Source: a virus (lineage: Duplodnaviria; Caudoviricetes). From it: DNA of 64,000 bases. Shown here in pieces: positions 5,513-47,276 of this stretch (the stretch's first letter is position 1; each line of letters opens with the position of its first letter). Position numbers and translations under genes: made by a program. The notes beneath the pieces were generated by a model. That model was not told where the DNA came from and searched no databases. It was given only the letters and a program-made list of their open reading frames with translations. The DNA is taken from the IMG/VR virus record IMGVR_UViG_3300035696_000034, positions 8,487-72,486 of that record; one strand, given 5' to 3'.

Positions 5513-5571
5513 ATCTGATTTCTAATAATGTCCTAATAGCGTCTACTTTTATTGGGGCACAGGAAAAATAA

Positions 5572-6117
5572 ATGATTAAAAAAGTCGTAGTCCTATCACG
5601 GCAGTGGATCGAAAGATTCATTGATCAATTGAAAATAATACCTGACATAGAAGGTGGTTGGGCTATCATATCCATTTTCAGCAGCGACATCCTTTTGAAT
5701 CCGAAGAACATAGAGATACTTAAGAAACTCGGATGTCACGGCCACATAAGTTTACAGTTTGCAGATGTCACAAAAGAAAATTATGAAAGGGCCAAAGATT
5801 TCTACGATGAAAAGAATCTTTATCTGTTTAATGAAATGCACGCGAAAAGTATTTTAAATTTTATTGATGAAGTGCAGAAAAATGATAAGATTCAAACATT
5901 GGTCGTACATTGCTCTGCAGGCATAAGTCGGTCAGGGGCTATTGGCCTTTTCGCTAGTAGATATCTACATATAGACGAAAAAGAATTCTGGAAAATAAAC
6001 CCAAATCTTGCCCCCAATAGTTATGTACTTCATCTTTTACTGGAAACTTCTGGAATAAAAGATGATTATATAAGATTTTGGGAAAAACTTGATTTTGATC
6101 CAAAAAATATTTTTTAA
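5572..6117 (+). CDS. protein-tyrosine/dual-specificity phosphatase-like protein
   Basis: HCSAGISRS (CX5R) motif. Confidence 0.8.
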   Translation: MIKKVVVLSRQWIERFIDQLKIIPDIEGGWAIISIFSSDILLNPKNIEILKKLGCHGHISLQFADVTKENYERAKDFYDEKNLYLFNEMHAKSILNFIDEVQKNDKIQTLVVHCSAGISRSGAIGLFASRYLHIDEKEFWKINPNLAPNSYVLHLLLETSGIKDDYIRFWEKLDFDPKNIF

Positions 6118-6129
6118 TAGGAGGATTTT

Positions 6130-6657
6130 ATGGATAGAAAGGTGTTACTTGTAGTTTTGTTGGCTTGCGCATGTGCTTTTGCTTGGCATGGTGGAGACAG
6201 AGGAAATGTCCGTGAAGGATTTCATGGAGAATTCCGTGGATCTAACGGATATTACAGCGGATATTACCATCCGTTTTGGTTCCCAGGAGCTTTTGTTCCT
6301 TATCTCCCCTATTACACAATAGTCGTTGTAGGAGATGATTCATATTACTATTGTGATGGTACTTATTTCCTGTCGAGCCCAGGTGGATATGTAATTGTAG
6401 ACGATCCTATGGTATCCCCACCTGTGACTGTTCAGCCAGAGCCCACTCCAGCATCTAAACCTGCTCCAGTCGAAAAAGCCCAGGCTCCTGCTCAACAGAA
6501 GACTTCTGATACGATATCAATCAATGTCCCTAACTCAAAAGGCGGATACATTGCTGTGAAGCTTATAAAGCACAAAGACGGATATCTCGGTCCACAGGGA
6601 GAATATTATGCAGGTCATCCTACTGTGGCTGAACTTAAAGCTTTGTATGGTGACTAA
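6130..6657 (+). CDS. secreted Pro/Tyr-rich protein (DUF6515-like)
   Basis: signal peptide; YYYCDGTYF and YVIVDDP patterns. Confidence 0.55.
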   Translation: MDRKVLLVVLLACACAFAWHGGDRGNVREGFHGEFRGSNGYYSGYYHPFWFPGAFVPYLPYYTIVVVGDDSYYYCDGTYFLSSPGGYVIVDDPMVSPPVTVQPEPTPASKPAPVEKAQAPAQQKTSDTISINVPNSKGGYIAVKLIKHKDGYLGPQGEYYAGHPTVAELKALYGD

Positions 6658-7473
6658 ATGCCACTAAGATTCGTTTATGCGACGGACATCCACGGAGACC
6701 TCAGCAAATATGAAAAGGTGTATCAGTTCGCATTAGATCACGATATAAATCTGATACACCTAGGTGCTGATCTTTTGCCAAAAGGATCAGACATAGAAGT
6801 CAAACAAAAAAAGTTCATCAAGAAAGATTTTAAGAATTTCTACGAAACTTGCGAAGATAAAGGCATAAAAGTTCTCAGTTTTTTCGGGAACGACGATCTC
6901 TACCCGATGAAGAAATATTACAGAGAATATGCTGATCTTCTGGACGAAAGACCTTACACTCAAGACGGCTATGAATTCAAGGCTTACGGATATGTGCTCG
7001 ACTACCCGTTCGGATTGAAAACTGCATGTAAGCTTGACTATTCTGGGTGGAGATTCCCGGAGGAATACATAAGCGCTCCCTTTGAATACACTGAAAAAAA
7101 AGGTTGGGAAACTGTCAAGGATTTAGGAAAATATTTTGCTAAAAAAGGGACGATAGAGGATGATTTAAAAAAGATCCGTGCTACAGATAAAACCATTATG
7201 GCTATACACATGCCGCCACAATCCTTGAATCTAGATGTGTGCATAGATGGTCGGAGAGTGGGATCTAAAGCTGTATTGGACTGGGCTGTGAAAAATCAAC
7301 CACTTGTGCTCTTAACTGGGCACATTCATGAGAGCCCTTCTGTTACTGGTACATGGAAAGTAGCAGTAGGAAAAACCCTGGTCATTCAACCTGGTCAATC
7401 AGAACTTGATACTGTTTTAGTCCTAATCGAACTCGAGGAAGATGGCGTAAAAACTTACCTGGTCAAGCTTTGA
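6658..7473 (+). CDS. metallophosphoesterase (calcineurin-like)
   Basis: DIHG, GADL, GNDD, GHIHE motifs. Confidence 0.85.
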   Translation: MPLRFVYATDIHGDLSKYEKVYQFALDHDINLIHLGADLLPKGSDIEVKQKKFIKKDFKNFYETCEDKGIKVLSFFGNDDLYPMKKYYREYADLLDERPYTQDGYEFKAYGYVLDYPFGLKTACKLDYSGWRFPEEYISAPFEYTEKKGWETVKDLGKYFAKKGTIEDDLKKIRATDKTIMAIHMPPQSLNLDVCIDGRRVGSKAVLDWAVKNQPLVLLTGHIHESPSVTGTWKVAVGKTLVIQPGQSELDTVLVLIELEEDGVKTYLVKL

Positions 7474-8477: not shown

Positions 8478-8557
8478 GGCAATGTAGCTCAGTTTTGGTA
8501 GAGCGGTGCTCTCATAAGGCGCGTCAGTCGGCGGTTCGATCCCGCCCATTGCCACCA
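8478..8557 (+). tRNA. tRNA-Met or Ile2 (CAU)
   Basis: cloverleaf, loop CTCATAA, encoded CCA. Confidence 0.85.
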
Positions 8558-36783: not shown

Positions 36784-37386
36784 ATGGATGCTTGGCTGAC
36801 TGCAGATACTCACTTCGGATATACTGTTAAGGATACAGACGGAGGTATTGAAAGGCCTAAGGATTTCTCTGAAAAGCTTTTCAAAGGGCTTCAGAGATCT
36901 CTTACACCTTACAGCACGCTCATACATCTTGGAGATTTATGCTACAGGGATGACGAAATCTGGAATAAAAGATTAGCAGAACTTCCAGGTAAAAAGTGGC
37001 TTATTATCGGGAACCACGATAAAAAGTCGATCACATGGTATCTTGATAATGGGTGGGATTTTGCAGGTCATACTATATCCCTGATAGCTTTTGGTAAAAA
37101 TATATTGTTTTCGCATATACCAATGATGACGGATAATCTTTGTGCCGGTCCAAAAGGCTATTCAGAGCATAGATTTGATATAAATATTCACGGGCATTTT
37201 CACGATTTTCCAGCAGAGAAAGTGAAAGAGAAAGAGCCCGAGATATATAAAATACTGAATAAAAAACATTTTCTTATCTCTATGGAAAAGCTCAATTATC
37301 AGCCTATAAAACTGAAAAGGATAGTCGAACTTTTCAACACTGGAAAGTACCATGGACTCGAAAATGCCCTTACTCCTAACCCGTGA
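36784..37386 (+). CDS. calcineurin-like phosphoesterase
   Basis: ADTHFG, HLGDL, GNHD, SHIP, HGHFH. Confidence 0.85.
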   Translation: MDAWLTADTHFGYTVKDTDGGIERPKDFSEKLFKGLQRSLTPYSTLIHLGDLCYRDDEIWNKRLAELPGKKWLIIGNHDKKSITWYLDNGWDFAGHTISLIAFGKNILFSHIPMMTDNLCAGPKGYSEHRFDINIHGHFHDFPAEKVKEKEPEIYKILNKKHFLISMEKLNYQPIKLKRIVELFNTGKYHGLENALTPNP

Positions 37387-38407
37387 TGACTTCCGAGAGA
37401 AAGTCTTCGAGAGAGACTCTCATAAGTGCGTATTGTGCGGGGTGGAGGCTGCAGATGCCCACCATATCTTAGATCGCTCTCTCTTCGATGATAGTGGTTA
37501 CTATGTCGAAAATGGAGTTTCACTCTGTACTTTTCATCACCTTGAAGCAGAGAAAACCCACATAACTTGTGATGAGCTCAGGGAAGCTGCTAAAATTAAA
37601 ACCAGGTGCATGCCTGAACACTTCTATCTTGATGAGAATTATGATCACTGGGGAAACATTGTGTTGCCCAACAAGATGAGACTTAAAGGTGAGCTGTTTG
37701 GTAATGAGAATGTTCAGAAGATACTTAAAGAAGCTGATGTTTTGGATTTATTCCAAAAATACATTAAGCAGTCCCGAACATTCCACCTTCCTTGGAGTGA
37801 GAACCTTCAGAATGATGATCGTAAACATGAGAATGTAGAATTCCTTTTGAATAAGCCTGTTGTAACTACCTTGAAGATGGACGGTGAGGGATCCAGTTTG
37901 TGTTCTGACCACATGCATGCTCGGTCTATTAACTCTGGACACCACCCATCTAGAAGCTGGTTAAAAGCCCTTCATGGTCAAATAGCACAGGACATACCAA
38001 AAGGATTTCGTGTGGTAGGAGAGAATGTTTATGCTAAGCACTCAATTTATTATCAACATCTCAAGACCTATTTTTATGTATTTTCTATATGGAATGAAAA
38101 CAATATAGCTTTGAGTTGGGATGAAACTCATGAGTATGCCGAACTGCTAGGATTAACTATGGTACCTGAAATTTGTTTCGGGACCTATAAGACCATAGAG
38201 GAAATGAGAAGTGATATAGAGACAAACCTTGAAAAATATTCGAAAATCTGCAAAGACGAAATAGAGGGTTATGTCGTTAGGTTAGCCGATAGGATACCCT
38301 ATAAGGATTGGAGGATATCTTCGGGAAAGTTCGTAAGAAAAAATCATGTACAAACTTCAGAAAATTGGATTACACAACCAGTAATTCCTAATAAGCTTGA
38401 GGAATAG
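37352..38407 (+). CDS. RNA ligase with N-terminal HNH domain
   Basis: FERDSHKCVLCG..DAHHI..NGVSLC..HH (HNH); KMDG motif I, GEN, EGYVVR, KFVRKNHV. Confidence 0.85.
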   Translation: MDSKMPLLLTRDDFREKVFERDSHKCVLCGVEAADAHHILDRSLFDDSGYYVENGVSLCTFHHLEAEKTHITCDELREAAKIKTRCMPEHFYLDENYDHWGNIVLPNKMRLKGELFGNENVQKILKEADVLDLFQKYIKQSRTFHLPWSENLQNDDRKHENVEFLLNKPVVTTLKMDGEGSSLCSDHMHARSINSGHHPSRSWLKALHGQIAQDIPKGFRVVGENVYAKHSIYYQHLKTYFYVFSIWNENNIALSWDETHEYAELLGLTMVPEICFGTYKTIEEMRSDIETNLEKYSKICKDEIEGYVVRLADRIPYKDWRISSGKFVRKNHVQTSENWITQPVIPNKLEE

Positions 38408-38410
38408 TCT

Positions 38411-39304
38411 ATGCGTACGATACATTTTTTCCGGGGATTGCCTGGCTGCGGGAAGAGCACTGAAGCTCTCAAGATGCTTGAGGAGCATCCAGACAGGTAT
38501 CGCAGGGTAAATAAAGACTCCATAAGAACTATGCTTATTGGACCTAGAGTAGCTTTCTATGCTGAAGCTATGGTCGAAAGTATCCAAAATCACTGCATGG
38601 AGATAGCTTTGGCCAAGGGTTTTGATGTCATCTGTGACAACACCAATCTCAAAGAGAAGTATTATCTGGATGCGTGTGCTGTAGCTAAACGAGTAGGAGA
38701 TGTCCAGATCATTGAGCGTTATTTTGATGTTCCTTTGGAAGAGTGTTTAAAGAGAAATGCAGGAAGACCTAACCCTGTCCCTGAAGATGTGATAAGAGGT
38801 ATGTGGGAGAAAAATATTAAGGGGAAGATTGTTTCCCAAAGGACGGAGTATTTTCCTCCTGTAATAAGAACATTTGAAAAAGATCCAAATCTACCGGATG
38901 CCATAATTTCGGATGTTGACGGGACTGTGGCTCTCAATCAGGCTGGGAGAAGCTATTATGATTTTACTCGAGTCCTGGAAGACTTGGTAAATGTCCCTGT
39001 CGCCAATCTCATAAGAGACTACAAGAAAAAGGGAGTCACAATAATCATTGTATCGGGAAGAGATGATGTCTGTCAGGCAGACACTGAAACCTGGTTCAAG
39101 TGCAATGATATCCCTTTTGATGCGCTTTATATGAGAGTTACTGGTGATAAAAAGAAGGATAGTGCCCTCAAAGAAGAAATCTATAACAAGTATATTAAGG
39201 GGAAGTACAACGTCCTTTTTGTTTTGGACGATAGACAAAAAGTCGTAGATAAATGGCGTGAACTTGGCCTTACTTGTCTGCAGGTAAATAGCGGAAATTT
39301 CTAA
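38411..39304 (+). CDS. pseT: polynucleotide 5'-kinase / 3'-phosphatase (T4 PseT-like)
   Basis: GLPGCGKST P-loop; DVDGT HAD motif; VLDDRQKVVDKWR.LGL. Confidence 0.9.
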   Translation: MRTIHFFRGLPGCGKSTEALKMLEEHPDRYRRVNKDSIRTMLIGPRVAFYAEAMVESIQNHCMEIALAKGFDVICDNTNLKEKYYLDACAVAKRVGDVQIIERYFDVPLEECLKRNAGRPNPVPEDVIRGMWEKNIKGKIVSQRTEYFPPVIRTFEKDPNLPDAIISDVDGTVALNQAGRSYYDFTRVLEDLVNVPVANLIRDYKKKGVTIIIVSGRDDVCQADTETWFKCNDIPFDALYMRVTGDKKKDSALKEEIYNKYIKGKYNVLFVLDDRQKVVDKWRELGLTCLQVNSGNF

Positions 39305-39811
39305 ATGAAAGAAATAGTCTCCGAAAAACATCTGAAGTCAATAGTTAAGAATTTGGCCAGCCAAATAAATCTTGATTATTTGCATGCCGACGGGTTTATT
39401 ATAATAGGACTCTTAAAAGGCTCATTCATTTTTTTGGCAGATTTGATACGACAGATCGAACTCCCTGTTAAGGTGGATTTCATATCAGTCTCAAGCTATA
39501 AAGATAATACTCAAGGATCTGAAATAAAAGTAAATATGAATTTAAGTGTTTCAATCGCTGACAAAGATGTTTTGGTTGTTGAAGATATTGTTGACTCTGG
39601 AAAGACTCTTTCAACAGTACTGAATTTGCTAGCACAAAAAAATCCAAAGTCTTTAAGGACGTGTGTCCTGTTAAACAAGAAACGACCTAGAGTTATCGAT
39701 ACGCACATAGACTATTGTGGCATGGAAATTCCAGATGTTTATCCTTTTGGTTATGGTTTGGATGATGATGAGTTTTTAAGAGGACTCCCTTTCATTGCTT
39801 ATAATAAATGA
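39305..39811 (+). CDS. hpt: hypoxanthine phosphoribosyltransferase
   Basis: LKGSFIFLADL, VLVVEDIVDSGKTL, GYGLD. Confidence 0.92.
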   Translation: MKEIVSEKHLKSIVKNLASQINLDYLHADGFIIIGLLKGSFIFLADLIRQIELPVKVDFISVSSYKDNTQGSEIKVNMNLSVSIADKDVLVVEDIVDSGKTLSTVLNLLAQKNPKSLRTCVLLNKKRPRVIDTHIDYCGMEIPDVYPFGYGLDDDEFLRGLPFIAYNK

Positions 39812-39820
39812 GAACCAAAC

Positions 39821-41077
39821 ATGTATGATGTAGTTATTATAGGATCTGGACCTGCTGGACTCGGGGCTGCATTTCATCTCTCTGAGCATTCAACCAAATC
39901 AATTCTGCTTATAGATAAATCAAAACTAAGCTCTGGTGGCCTTCGTAATGACTGCAAACAAAATTATAAATATCCGATAGGGTTTCCAACTGAACTTTGG
40001 AGTGAACAGCTTAGTACAAAACTATTAGAGGTCGTGGAAGAGCACCTAAAACCCGATATCATACCCTCCTCGGAGAAAATTAACATCTATAAACAAAGGG
40101 CACAGAAGCTTAATACGAATCTCATAGAGATAAGGCAAGCTCACGTTGGAACTGATAAATCAGCTACATTGATTAGTGACTTGATAAATCAATTACAGAA
40201 AAACGGTGTGGAGATATGTCTAGATAAAGCTGTAGGTTCGTTCAGTGACGGAAAAGTTGTTTTAGATACCTCTTTTGAAGAAATAAAATGTAAAAACATA
40301 ATCGTGGCTCCAGGAAGGGCAGGATCAGGCTGGCTTAGAGAGTGCATGAAGAGATTAGATATTAGCTTTGTCGACAATGTCGTTGATATAGGAGTTAGAG
40401 TTGAAGCGAAAGAGCAGTACTACCCAATAGTAAAAGATTACTATGATCCCAAGTTCATGTTTCCGGACGATGTCAGAACTTTCTGCACCAACTCAGGAAA
40501 TGCTCACGTGGTAAAAGAAAAATATCCATCATATTTCTCCGTAAACGGTCACTCATTTTCGAACTCAATGAAATCAAACGGTCTAGTCAATTTTGCCCTA
40601 TTAAAAACAATTAAATTGACCGATCCGGTAGTCAGCGGTTATGATTTTGCAGAAATATTGGGAAAAGCTGCAATGAGTCTCAGCAACGGAAAACCTTTAA
40701 TGCAAAGAGTTGGTGATTTTAGATTGGGAAAAAGATCAAAAAAAGAAACATTCAATAACGATCTTTACGATTTCCTACCTACTTTAAGAGATGCTACCCC
40801 GGGGGATATTGGTTTAGCAATACCAGCAAAGATTTTGAGGCATATTTGGAAATCGATGAAAACCCTGGATACCATTATTCCAGGGATATTATACCCCTCA
40901 ACTATCATGTATTATCCAGAAATAAAGACATATGCAAATAAACCCAAATTTATTGATGATTATTTCAGGGTTAAGAATAATATTTTTATGATTGGGGATG
41001 GTGCTGGGGTAAGTAGGGGCATAACCGCAGCCTGGGCCTCTGGAATAAGAGCTGCAAAAGGAATTTTGTTAGATTAG
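39821..41077 (+). CDS. NAD(P)/FAD-dependent oxidoreductase
   Basis: IGSGPAGL, GDGAG.SRGI..A.ASG. Confidence 0.85.
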   Translation: MYDVVIIGSGPAGLGAAFHLSEHSTKSILLIDKSKLSSGGLRNDCKQNYKYPIGFPTELWSEQLSTKLLEVVEEHLKPDIIPSSEKINIYKQRAQKLNTNLIEIRQAHVGTDKSATLISDLINQLQKNGVEICLDKAVGSFSDGKVVLDTSFEEIKCKNIIVAPGRAGSGWLRECMKRLDISFVDNVVDIGVRVEAKEQYYPIVKDYYDPKFMFPDDVRTFCTNSGNAHVVKEKYPSYFSVNGHSFSNSMKSNGLVNFALLKTIKLTDPVVSGYDFAEILGKAAMSLSNGKPLMQRVGDFRLGKRSKKETFNNDLYDFLPTLRDATPGDIGLAIPAKILRHIWKSMKTLDTIIPGILYPSTIMYYPEIKTYANKPKFIDDYFRVKNNIFMIGDGAGVSRGITAAWASGIRAAKGILLD

Positions 41078-41195
41078 TTTTAAAACAAGGAATATGTCCT
41101 TGAAAAGAAATCATGGGTGGTTGTGAAAATTTGAAACAGCTATAAAAAGTTTCTAATAATCTAGTAATACATTTTAGATGTATAAAAGGAGCCTT

Positions 41196-41336
41196 ATGAA
41201 CAGAACACAGATATATCTAACGGACAAAGAACAAAAAAATCTTAAAAAAGAAGCCGATGAAATAGGCATATCAAAAGCCGAGCTTGTAAGAAGAATCCTT
41301 GATAAGCACATAGAAGAAAAGAAAAAATGTATATAA
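41196..41336 (+). CDS. CopG/ribbon-helix-helix regulator (46 aa)
   Basis: MNRTQIYLTD....L...A...GISKAELVRRILD; ATACAT/ATGTAT palindrome upstream. Confidence 0.8.
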   Translation: MNRTQIYLTDKEQKNLKKEADEIGISKAELVRRILDKHIEEKKKCI

Positions 41337-42556
41337 GTATACCAGCAACCATCCATGACGGAGACTTTGAAGTTCTCAAGCAACTTATGAGAGACTGGTC
41401 TTCTTGTAAAAGATATGCTTATCAACGGATACACAAAGATAAGCTGGCTGGCAATAATGTTAAAAAAGCCTGTAAACCTATTTATATGTCTAAACTTAAC
41501 GCCAGATATATAGCAGATGCCGTTTTAGAGGCTCAAAAAATAAATCAAGATCATGCCATATTCGGTAGCAAAAAACTATGGAATAAACTTATTTCAAAAC
41601 TAATAACCAAAAAAGAGTGGCAGGAAGTAAGAGACTCAGAATTATATTCGAGGGGAGAACGTTCTAAAAAAGGTAACGCAAATATACGTGTCTTCAATAC
41701 TCCCGAAGGATATAAGCTTAGAATAGGACTTTCAAAAGCCTATGCATTTACAACATTTACTCTCTATATACCTGAAGGACACAAGAAAAATCAAAAAAAT
41801 TATAAGAGTATGTTCGACTTGTATTCGGACTGCTATGATATAAGAATCAAATATAAATCAGGTAAGTTTTATGCTCAGATAGGTTTAGATGTTCCAGAAG
41901 TAAAACCCATTTATCTGTGTAAAAATGGAGTCGTTGGAGTAGACACTAACCCCGATGGTTTTGCTATCATTGAAACAAACTTTGATGGAAATCTTTTACA
42001 CCACGAGTATTTAAAAAATGACAGGCTTCAATATGCTAGTCATAATAAGAGAAAAAGTGATATAGAGGCTTTAGCTATTCTGGTAGTGAATAAAGCCATC
42101 CTATCGAATAAAGGTATAGCCTTGGAAGATTTAAAATTCAGTGAAGGAAAAAACAGGTACAAAAAATTTAATAGGATGAAACATAATTTTATATATCGTC
42201 AACTCTTATTAGCCGTTGAACGCAGGGCTATTAAAGACGGGGTTGAAGTCAGGAAAGTAAATCCTGCTTTTACTTCTATTGCAGGGATCCTCAAATACCA
42301 AGAGCAGTACTCGTTGAATCGTCATACTGCAGCAGCATTTATAATAGGCCGTCGCGGTTTAGGGATCGTGGAAAAGATAAGGGTTAGGCTGGAGCCGTTA
42401 AAGAACAAGAAGCTGAACCTTGCAGGAAGAGGTTTCAAGATTGCTTTGACGGTGAAGGCTTACTCCTATTTCAAGAAGCTCTATAATATCCTTGAAGTTA
42501 AAACGCCAGGGCTCACAGCCCCGTGCCTTACTCCCTTGTCGGGGAATACGGCATAA
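41327..42556 (+). CDS. tnpB: IS200/IS605 TnpB-related RuvC nuclease (no Zn finger)
   Basis: VGVDTN, IALEDL, VNPAFTS, HTAAAFIIGRRG. Confidence 0.85.
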   Translation: MYISIPATIHDGDFEVLKQLMRDWSSCKRYAYQRIHKDKLAGNNVKKACKPIYMSKLNARYIADAVLEAQKINQDHAIFGSKKLWNKLISKLITKKEWQEVRDSELYSRGERSKKGNANIRVFNTPEGYKLRIGLSKAYAFTTFTLYIPEGHKKNQKNYKSMFDLYSDCYDIRIKYKSGKFYAQIGLDVPEVKPIYLCKNGVVGVDTNPDGFAIIETNFDGNLLHHEYLKNDRLQYASHNKRKSDIEALAILVVNKAILSNKGIALEDLKFSEGKNRYKKFNRMKHNFIYRQLLLAVERRAIKDGVEVRKVNPAFTSIAGILKYQEQYSLNRHTAAAFIIGRRGLGIVEKIRVRLEPLKNKKLNLAGRGFKIALTVKAYSYFKKLYNILEVKTPGLTAPCLTPLSGNTA

Positions 42557-42763
42557 GCTAATCCGTAGGGCAGTAATGCCTTAGAGTTAGTGGTAATCGG
42601 ACTCTATTTCTAGTCGAGTCCGTATGAGGTCTAAGGATCTCAGATAGGAGTTGAAAGGACTCCTTTAAAAAATCTGCTTAAAATAAATTTTGACAGATTT
42701 TCTAAACTAGGGAAACCTATGATGCAAAGGGTCGATGGTTTTAAAAAATAAAAAAGAAACATC
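42540..42763 (+). ncRNA. putative omegaRNA/reRNA scaffold
   Basis: series of hairpins (GGCA/TGCC, GGACTC/GAGTCC, AGGAGT/ACTCCT, AAAATCTG/CAGATTTT) 3' of tnpB. Confidence 0.5.
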
Positions 42764-42844
42764 GGGACCAGTAGAGGAGTCACAGCGGCATGGGCTTCAG
42801 GGATCAGAGCTGCGATAGGGATTTTATTAGAAAAGGGGATTTAA
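42764..42844 (+). repeat. orphan original 3' end of the oxidoreductase gene
   Basis: encodes GTSRGVTAAWASGIRAAIGILLEKGI*; its TAA overlaps the next ATG (TAATG). Confidence 0.85.
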
Positions 42845-43107
42845 TGAAACGAAAAGGTTATTTGATCTTCACCACACACGACGGGGACGAGCTCGATGCT
42901 AGATTCGTTACAGATGAGAAGCTCTTCAAAGCTTTCAACAACTGTAAAGATAATGACGAAGCCATCGACGTTTGGGACAAATGGATCGACAAAAACGAAG
43001 TTAATGAAAAAGATGAATGGTATGTCATGACTCTTGGCAGGACTATAACCGAATGGAATTTCAACGATATTGAGGTTCTTGGAACATACTATTTTGAGGT
43101 CTATTAA
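42844..43107 (+). CDS. hypothetical protein
   Basis: ATG 42844 in ORF 42790..43107. Confidence 0.65.
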   Translation: MKRKGYLIFTTHDGDELDARFVTDEKLFKAFNNCKDNDEAIDVWDKWIDKNEVNEKDEWYVMTLGRTITEWNFNDIEVLGTYYFEVY

Positions 43108-45509: not shown

Positions 45510-47276
45510 TTACCCAAAATAGGAAGACAAAACATTCCTGACAGAGGAATTTCTTATCTTAAAAAAATCTCCGCTTTTTCGGTCTTCTGCACTGGACTTT
45601 ATCAAAGCCTCAAAAGCATTTTTATCTTTTAAGATAGACTCTATTAATTTTTTGGCTTCTTCTTTTCTTTTGCTTATATCCGGATCCCCCATACGGCCTT
45701 CCATCATCAGCTTTTTCAATCTGGCTATAACCGCTCCCAAAGCTTCTTTATCTATGCCGTACTGGTCCCTTATCTCGTCTCCAGACAGCGGAGGGACATA
45801 TTCATATTTATCTCTTTTGATTAAAAGTCCGTTCTTCTTGTCTTCTTCCACTAGCTTCTTTATTTTAGCTTCCAGATTTTCTACTTTTTTTATTCCTGCT
45901 TGATCTTTAGCGTCGGCTTTCAAAATAGCTATCGCATCATCCAAGTCATCGTGGAGTTTCTCTATGTATATCCTCATCGTCCTTTGTTGAGTGCTGGGTT
46001 TTTGACCCTCGAAATCCTTAAATCCCATATGGGAATGTACGATATTTTTTACGGAGTTGATAGTCTTGCTGTCAAAAGTAAGCTCTCTCATTATTTTTTC
46101 CGTTAATGCGGCACTAGCTTTTTCATGACCTATAAATTGTACACGCTGTCTACCCTCTTTGTCCACCTTTTCCGTCTTGGTAGCGATTTTACCTACATCA
46201 TGGAATAAAGCCGCAAGACGAGCCTTAAGCGTTGGCGGAGTCTTACTCATGACTTCCATGGTATGATCCCAGACAGATTCGCCTTTATGGAAGACTTTGT
46301 CGTGGTAGACGGTAAGAAGCTTATCAAACTCAGGCGAAAGGTATTTCAGGAACCCAAGCTCCTTCATAAGATTGAGGCCTTGAATAACCTTATTAGAATC
46401 GGGGAAGACCAGTATCTGCTCGAGCTCATCTCTGATACGCTCTTTAGAGAGCCTGCTGGAGATGTTCTTGTGACCCTCAGGGCTGTTTACGAACTGTTTA
46501 ATAGTTTCTTTGGTCTGAGGATCTATCTTGAAATCTGGTAGCTTCCCCTCGAACCGAATTAATCGCATTATTCTTAATGGATCTTCCTCATATATCTTCT
46601 GGATGCCTTCAGGATGCTCGGGTGGCTTGAGCTTTTTATTTTGAATATCCTGTATGCCTCCAACAAAATCTTTGACCTCACCAGTAACGATATTCTGATA
46701 GAGTGCGTTTATCGTAAGATCTCTTCTCCTACTATCGTCCTCCAGAGAAGTATAATCGACACGAGAAGGGGCTCGTTTCATTTCATCATAAGGTCCTTCT
46801 TTTCGTGGAGGAGTGATCTCTATGACATAGCCAGTCACATCGACTCCGTCTGTTATATAAGCTTGTCTGTTGCTCTCGGCATGATCTTGATGGGGATTAA
46901 GAAGAACAACTCCCCATATACCAAAAGCTTCTTTAAGAGGATGAGGATTATTTGGGGTAGTAATACCTAGAGCTTGTGTGAGTTTTTTGGCGAAGACTTC
47001 TGCAGCTTTCATCCCTTGCTCGGGATCATCGATAACCAGATCGAGATCTTTCGGGTTTCTTCCCAAAAGACGGTCCCTAACAAACCCACCCGTACTATAT
47101 ACTTTGTCTTTGTAGCTTGGAAATTCGGAGACTATGGTATCCTTAACGAGCTTTTCAACGGCATTGGTTTGTCTGGTTAATTCCTCTTTGGACTTTATTT
47201 CGTCCGGGACTTTAAACGCAGCTCCAGCTTCTCTCTCGTTCAGGAATGAGGAGACTACTCTTAGTTTTGAAACCAT
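45510..47276 (-). CDS. cca: CCA tRNA nucleotidyltransferase (class II) with HD domain
   Basis: GGFVRD.LLG..PKDLDL, DDSRRRDLTINAL, EDPLRIMRL.RF, SKERIRDEL, HT..V..LAALFHDVGK. Confidence 0.9.
   Translation of the reverse strand: MVSKLRVVSSFLNEREAGAAFKVPDEIKSKEELTRQTNAVEKLVKDTIVSEFPSYKDKVYSTGGFVRDRLLGRNPKDLDLVIDDPEQGMKAAEVFAKKLTQALGITTPNNPHPLKEAFGIWGVVLLNPHQDHAESNRQAYITDGVDVTGYVIEITPPRKEGPYDEMKRAPSRVDYTSLEDDSRRRDLTINALYQNIVTGEVKDFVGGIQDIQNKKLKPPEHPEGIQKIYEEDPLRIMRLIRFEGKLPDFKIDPQTKETIKQFVNSPEGHKNISSRLSKERIRDELEQILVFPDSNKVIQGLNLMKELGFLKYLSPEFDKLLTVYHDKVFHKGESVWDHTMEVMSKTPPTLKARLAALFHDVGKIATKTEKVDKEGRQRVQFIGHEKASAALTEKIMRELTFDSKTINSVKNIVHSHMGFKDFEGQKPSTQQRTMRIYIEKLHDDLDDAIAILKADAKDQAGIKKVENLEAKIKKLVEEDKKNGLLIKRDKYEYVPPLSGDEIRDQYGIDKEALGAVIARLKKLMMEGRMGDPDISKRKEEAKKLIESILKDKNAFEALIKSSAEDRKSGDFFKIRNSSVRNVLSSYFG

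Follow-up and report, generated by a model that had tools for sequence, protein, structure and literature searches.

A transposase-less TnpB element flanked by an intact viral oxidoreductase gene and the likely displaced end of a diverged allele

A transposase-less IS607-type element, spanning about positions 41122 to 42711 of a 64,000-nucleotide stretch of viral DNA (positions 8,487 to 72,486 of IMG/VR record IMGVR_UViG_3300035696_000034; hereafter the window), is bordered on its left by an intact gene for a flavin adenine dinucleotide (FAD)-dependent oxidoreductase and on its right by the decayed end of a second, diverged copy of the same gene. The element consists of a ribbon-helix-helix (RHH) gene, a gene for a TnpB-like nuclease that has no zinc finger and carries an Asp-to-His replacement in its active site, and an omegaRNA scaffold of about 200 nt. 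The reading that we favor, at a probability of roughly 0.55, is that the element entered one allele of the oxidoreductase gene and that the gene was then made whole by recombination with an allele that is immune to the element's guide.

The prevailing view of TnpB elements is that they survive by cleaving vacant sites, into which they are then copied back; how they deal with landing inside a gene is, to our knowledge, established only for the IStrons, which splice. The locus described here would represent a second possible outcome, in which a diverged allele without a match to the guide takes the place of the interrupted gene, as with e14 in icd. This arrangement is known for prophages, not for TnpB-type elements.

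The oxidoreductase gene is present twice, whole and as a remnant

The intact oxidoreductase ends in GVSRGITAAWASGIRAAKGILLD and a stop codon (41006-41077), and a second copy of this end, GTSRGVTAAWASGIRAAIGILLEKGI and a stop codon, is found at 42764-42844. An earlier reading of the window, made from the sequence alone (the sequence-only reading), had reported that over 23 codons 19 residues are identical, that 19 of 69 nt differ, 12 of them through synonymous third-position changes, and that the downstream copy is coupled to the next gene through TAATG. These counts are exact (of the 19 differences, 15 affect third positions, among them 12 single synonymous changes), and the TAA at 42842-42844 does share bases with the ATG of the open reading frame (ORF) at 42844-43107. 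The duplication is real: similarity between remnant and oxidoreductase reaches tblastn E values of 6e-7 to 1e-9, and the remnant, which contains one internal stop, matches only this oxidoreductase family when it is read through and compared with 5.8 billion proteins, so that chance can be dismissed.

The duplicated region extends over codons 290-418, not 396-418. Just 5' of the downstream copy the DNA translates in the same frame to GKPMMQRVDGFKK and a stop, and within the non-coding stretch of about 290 bases between the tnpB-like gene and the 87-aa ORF the remnant is composed of codons 290-300 (GKPMMQRVDGF, 42710-42742), an 11-nt deletion, codons 305-311 (with a 13-nt exact match to codons 307-311 at 42750-42762), an 85-codon deletion and codons 396 to stop. 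GKPMMQRV is the consensus of the oxidoreductase family for residues 290-297; the first 24 nt 3' of the element's right end keep this consensus coding and the rest of the remnant has decayed; what has survived is the sequence bordering the right end, together with that containing the next gene's ribosome site. The first base of the remnant is the right-end base itself, 42711, and the insertion point lies between codons 289 and 290 (42711/42712) in a Gly-Gly-Lys-Pro-Met-Met site. The sequence-only reading had let the downstream copy follow the structured right end at once; its junction at 42764, which would correspond to codon 396, is misplaced to the right by 52 bases. The evidence supports the downstream copy as the displaced original end of the gene. 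A search for full-length alleles that carry RVDGF or LLEKGI, as the remnant does, found none.

A structured RNA closes at the right end of the element

Conservation, compensatory changes and a pseudoknot, assessed across 16-30 related loci, point to a structured RNA that overlaps the 3' end of the tnpB-like gene and closes at the right end of the element. The region folds with a z score of -4.4 and is predicted to form three hairpins (H1, 42598-42622; H2, 42646-42664; H3, 42669-42701) followed by the tail TAAACTAGG (42703-42711), with 42610-42614 pairing with 42706-42710 in the pseudoknot. Among five close loci 12 of the 54 pairs are doubly compensated, the H1 stem is fully compensated in at least 10 loci around a conserved loop, and all loci share a 3' module made of a hairpin with the loop TAYWWCTGGTC, a hairpin with a GAAAGG loop, a third hairpin and the tail TAAACCAGG. 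The pseudoknot, CTGGT/ACCAG in the family, reads CTAGT/ACTAG in the window and CTGAT/ATCAG in one relative (L097), amounting to two independent double compensations. A search of Rfam returned no family.

Elements of the family terminate in AAACCAGG in about 30 loci, and copies within the same genome lose identity exactly there; in the window this end is ...AAACTAGG, with 42711 as its last base, and neither the element nor its right end recurs elsewhere in the contig. The flank at about 42712-42731, which adjoins the scaffold on its 3' side, where TnpB systems have their guide, is the putative guide source, and no second site in the window resembles it with 3 or fewer mismatches. Such a guide stops short of 42764, which the sequence-only reading had expected it to include, an outcome that this reading had itself named beforehand as refuting its proposal. 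Two viral contigs carry what appear to be miniature or decayed derivatives, one a scaffold with the exact right end and no tnpB gene (L131:14445-14554), the other a scaffold with only the last 56 codons of tnpB left (L132:7327-7543, minus strand).

The two alleles diverged long ago and differ at the guide site

The nearest homologues of the intact oxidoreductase are 84% identical (P0122-P0124), proteins from Spirochaetota are 64-66% identical, and the C-terminus is conserved across the whole family. Over the 34 alignable codons the proportion of synonymous differences (pS) between the two copies is 0.72 and that of nonsynonymous differences (pN) is 0.11, for a dN/dS of about 0.05, and 19 of the 26 differences fall at third positions; the values of pS and dN/dS indicate that both copies long evolved as working genes. 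What the sequence-only reading had taken for a recoded C-terminus thus appears to be old allelic divergence, of the order seen against the 84% relatives, and not recent design. The escape from the element's own guide that it had proposed is retained in another form, as the working copy differs from the putative guide at four of 20 positions (1, 8, 10 and 19, three of them in the first ten) and should escape it. When codons 1-289 were compared with codons 290-418, neither segment identity nor third-position GC content pointed to a chimera with its breakpoint at codon 290.

The target site is the most conserved motif of the oxidoreductase gene, with Gly-Gly at residues 289-290 in 101 of the 103 close homologues and in all 45 of the more distant ones. 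The intact allele reads Asn-Gly at these residues, Asn289 being unique among 148 homologues, and the GG-GG insertion motif is lost through Gly289Asn; in addition, Leu293 stands where homologues have Met. The coincidence of Asn289 with the junction is suggestive, no more. Further private changes of the intact oxidoreductase are His358Tyr (40892-40894) and Thr397Val (41009-41011), at columns that are 98-100% conserved among 119 homologues.

The element ends follow the IS607 pattern

IS607 elements have GG at the target and at their termini and generate no target duplication (PMC6188088). The element in the window conforms to this pattern: its left junction, GGTGG, fits the left-junction motif GGAGG of the family, its right end is CTAGG, and there is no direct repeat. 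It departs from IS607 in that the TnpA of the latter, a serine recombinase with a MerR-type helix-turn-helix (HTH), is absent, an RHH gene standing in the element instead, and TnpA is likewise absent from each of the 12 distinct loci examined on phage contigs. In distant members of the family from archaeal and clostridial genomes, however, a MerR-HTH-plus-resolvase TnpA lies directly 5' of, and overlaps, tnpB (L098:2328-2942 and L109:1926-2609), and the lineage is therefore of the IS607 type. Copies within the same genome are 93-97% identical (L105/L110, L109/L111 and L113/L116), which argues for recent mobility of these elements. The left-end core TTTGAAACAG, at 41130-41139 in the window, overlaps the best promoter-like site (TTGAAA-18-AATAAT, 41131-41160) and recurs in L002, L096, L099, L103, L105, L109, L113 and their same-genome copies.

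The position of the right end was examined in loci L002-L013 and L096-L119 and at 42704-42720 of the window. In about 22 of 30 loci a long ORF starts no more than 11 nt 3' of the right end, in 18 of them with ATG at 3-11 nt. Judged from the sequences, elements of the family seem to enter between the Shine-Dalgarno site of a gene and its start codon; no description of such placement was found in the literature searched. Inside the oxidoreductase gene, GGTGG is followed after 7 nt by ATGATG, a mimic of Shine-Dalgarno-to-ATG sites that would explain the landing place. In the other loci the GGAGG of the left junction runs straight into a stop codon, and an element inserted between Shine-Dalgarno site and start would bring a new AGG and stop.

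Three candidate features were rejected. TTTGA/TTTAA was considered as a target-adjacent motif (TAM) and dropped when same-genome copies placed GGAGGTTTGA inside or at the left end of the element. A duplicate of the remnant end plus the next gene's start at 41078-41140 aligned with a score equal to that of shuffled sequences, and a decayed gene piece 5' of codon 290 at 41078-41121 showed no significant similarity to the oxidoreductase.

The nuclease resembles a virus-enriched TnpB clade

The 409-aa protein matches the NCBIfam model guided_TnpB at E 1.3e-12, below the cut-off of that model, and has no match in a local Pfam search. Its AlphaFold model (predicted local distance difference test, pLDDT, 85) retrieves Cas12f, Cas12k, TnpB and Fanzor in Foldseek with probability 1 and E values down to 8.6e-12, and thus is predicted to adopt the WED/REC/RuvC fold of TnpB and Cas12f. 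The sequence-only reading's description of the element as TnpB-type, encoding an RHH protein but not TnpA, is borne out. D206, E267 and H333 are invariant in 23 homologues, so that the third position of the RuvC Asp-Glu-Asp triad is an invariant histidine, His333, which starts the helix that bears the third Asp in TnpB. The family has no CxxC pairs, and a mere 13 residues separate the TS motif from His333. The TnpB relatives P0002-P0010 are 67-71% identical to the protein. A search of PDB sequences with the family profile gave no matches.

Altae-Tran et al. (2023, PNAS, PMC10691335) described a TnpB clade, RIIIr-4, with no C4 zinc finger, an Asp-to-His replacement at RuvC-III, RHH or MazE partners in some members, an enrichment in viruses and a long 3' untranslated region for guide RNA. 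Judged by these published features, the nuclease in the window matches RIIIr-4 in its absent zinc finger, RuvC-III histidine, RHH partner, viral setting and 3' RNA region; the difference is that PMC10691335 contains no account of a scaffold, of element ends or of insertion beside start codons. Nuclease activity and guide use are presumed for the window protein. Repression of an element's own promoter by an Arc-type RHH protein has been demonstrated only for IS605 elements (bioRxiv 10.64898/2026.09.24.754181), and by analogy the RHH protein may autoregulate the element in the window.

Most of the phage-contig relatives have no RHH-like gene beside tnpB; in one relative, 41% identical, a 62-aa RHH-like ORF without a Pfam match at E 0.01 lies just 5' of tnpB (L006:4798-4986). 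In another locus (L008:4482-6708) the family's TnpB-like gene is split by a 293-aa LAGLIDADG-type ORF (5567-6448, Pfam LAGLIDADG_3), and the TnpB C-terminus picks up again at about 6391-6708, giving the appearance of a homing endonuclease nested in the TnpB gene.

Origin of the locus

The right end of the element abuts codon 290 exactly, at a site like those of the rest of the family, which argues that the element would have inserted into an allele of the remnant type, at the GG of Gly289-Gly290, by the family's normal route. The remaining 3' part of the interrupted allele (42710-42844) would then have decayed. Had the element simply inserted, the left junction would show codon 289, yet a whole gene is found there, which calls for a second joining event. 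We propose that recombination between two related, diverged phages joined a complete working allele to the element's left, through a crossover that may have been illegitimate and within 41078-41121, or may have taken place inside two differently placed copies of the element. The guide, if read from the flank at about 42712-42731, would match the displaced allele only; the working copy would be immune, and phages with a remnant-type allele would be cut and possibly converted by repair from this genome. The sequence-only reading had held that the element inserted in the gene and itself restores it. Its first half agrees with a scaffold that abuts DNA of the interrupted gene, and its second half is not supported, as the restoring segment is outside the conserved left end, from which the stop of the intact gene is 44 bases away.

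Several points weigh against recombination with a guide-immune allele. No DNA of a close relative, element-free or element-bearing, came out of the searches: viral contigs scanned for element-free relatives, with either the protein or alignments as query, and a phage database searched by blastn gave no matches, and a metagenome scan returned only alleles at most 66% identical. The 44 nt left of the element (41078-41121) match neither the oxidoreductase nor the start of the next gene. Asn289 is one of three private changes at columns conserved to at least 95%, which puts the chance of one of the three falling at the junction at about 0.05, and four mismatches in 20 amount to the average divergence of the two alleles. 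Guide immunity is judged from mismatches, and cleavage with a histidine at RuvC-III is presumed.

Part of the same evidence would also suit a possible but distinctly less probable history, in which the composite from intact codon 290 to 42711, made up of a replacement 3' gene segment, the spacer, the RHH and tnpB genes and the omegaRNA, is an evolved mobile unit that homes by RNA guidance into remnant-type alleles and spares the gene. Its layout equals that of e14 in icd, where the element side carries the working gene and the opposite side the displaced pseudogene of its C-terminus (PMC13626634); its guide matches the displaced allele only and lies in the gene's most conserved motif, and beyond the right end the first 24 nt are still family consensus where the rest has decayed. 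It is doubtful to the same degree that the locus is an RNA-guided gene drive, in which TnpB and its omegaRNA would cut the GGKPMMQR site of remnant-type alleles in co-infecting relatives and repair would install the element together with the immune last 129 codons. The replacement segment, however, falls outside the conserved left end, protein identity is unbroken across codon 290, and alleles that differ at about 25% of nucleotides would serve poorly as a left homology arm. Of 30 other family loci none has its upstream gene duplicated, which argues that duplication is not a strategy of the family, and a junction-pattern scan for a second genome with the composite found none.

Saturated synonymous divergence fits old paralogues as well as alleles, and the two copies might descend from tandem paralogues, the second of which the element entered at codon 290 without cost before deletions removed its 5' 289 codons and 3' parts. 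This scheme needs insertion and deletions only, two of the latter being visible in the remnant, but we consider it rather unlikely, as a second copy is present in 0 of 80 homologous loci (up to 8 kb on each side) and as one deletion would have to end a few bases from the left junction and erase 867 nt without trace. Very improbable, finally, are an older recombination scar in which the element landed by chance, for which mosaic phage genomes and IS607 transposases that need only GG could be invoked but which would make the start of the remnant at the exact right-end base an unlikely coincidence, and an element that is now inert, given that its full-length gene, the presence of all invariant residues and its doubly compensated pseudoknot speak for recent function.

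Comparison with prophages and homing endonucleases

For an element that entered one allele and a gene restored by another, the nearest parallel is the insertion of e14 and phage 21 in E. coli icd, where e14 leaves the displaced original 3' end as the icdC pseudogene (PMC13626634). As in the window, where the working gene stands on one side of the element and the displaced 3' pseudogene on the other, the working 3' end in icd is on the element side, its differences are mostly silent and the displaced pseudogene lies beyond. The prophage, in contrast, integrates through attP x attB recombination by an integrase, and the replacement end is part of every copy, whereas the element in the window lacks an integrase, the replacement end is found beyond the conserved left end and only one instance is known.

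A second parallel is the intronless homing of phage endonucleases, in which sequence differences mark self (PMC13565253). The free-standing homing endonucleases of T-even phages (SegF/MobE) and the IStrons are likewise selfish nucleases between or within conserved genes whose function is kept, and differences in target sequence tell self from non-self. The locus in the window differs from both in its putative recognition by guide RNA and in that gene function is kept by a second allele, not by splicing or an intergenic position.

The locus offers a natural target/escape pair (4 mismatches and a lost GG-GG motif) for an uncharacterized, virus-enriched TnpB clade with an active-site histidine, and the placement of right ends a few bases before start codons suggests a target rule. 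A gene drive of the kind outlined above, if true, would allow spread without fitness cost and without a transposase.

Gene layout and neighboring genes

The window is part of a 72,486-bp IMG/VR viral contig with a CheckV completeness of 29%, and the features of the locus are collected in Table 1.

Table 1. Features of the oxidoreductase/TnpB locus, in window coordinates.
Feature	Position	Strand	Evidence
FAD-dependent oxidoreductase gene, intact, 418 aa, working allele	39821..41077	+	ORF; Pfam Pyr_redox_2, DAO, FAD-depend_C
Site matching insertion motif and guide in the intact allele, codons 289-296, S-N-G-K-P-L-M-Q-R	40685..40709	+	Alignment to remnant
Spacer between stop of intact gene and left junction, 44 nt, ends GGGTGG (41115-41120)	41078..41121	+	
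Element left end: conserved TTTGAAACAGCT core (41130-41141) and promoter-like site	41122..41177	+	Shared core, promoter scan
Ribbon-helix-helix (Arc/CopG-like) gene, 52 aa, overlaps tnpB start	41178..41336	+	Pfam RHH_1 E 1.3e-4, above cut-off
TnpB-like, putatively RNA-guided nuclease gene, 409 aa, no zinc finger, His at RuvC-III	41327..42556	+	NCBIfam, AlphaFold, Foldseek
omegaRNA-like scaffold	42508..42711	+	Covariation, pseudoknot, folding z score
Putative guide-encoding flank, codons 290-296 of displaced allele	42712..42731	+	Position directly 3' of scaffold
Remnant block 1: codons 290-300, 11-nt deletion, codons 305-311	42710..42762	+	Alignment; 13-nt exact match to 40739-40751
Remnant block 2: codons 396 to stop; contains Shine-Dalgarno site of next gene	42764..42844	+	Alignment, tblastn
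Next gene, 87 aa, no family match; start overlaps remnant stop (TAATG)	42844..43107	+	ORF

The neighbors at 37352-39811 and 45510-47276 have, by reading alone, the look of a nucleic-acid repair and tRNA set: they include ORFs that resemble an HNH-plus-ligase protein, a polynucleotide kinase/phosphatase and a hypoxanthine phosphoribosyltransferase, and a further neighbor, on the minus strand, resembles a CCA-adding enzyme.

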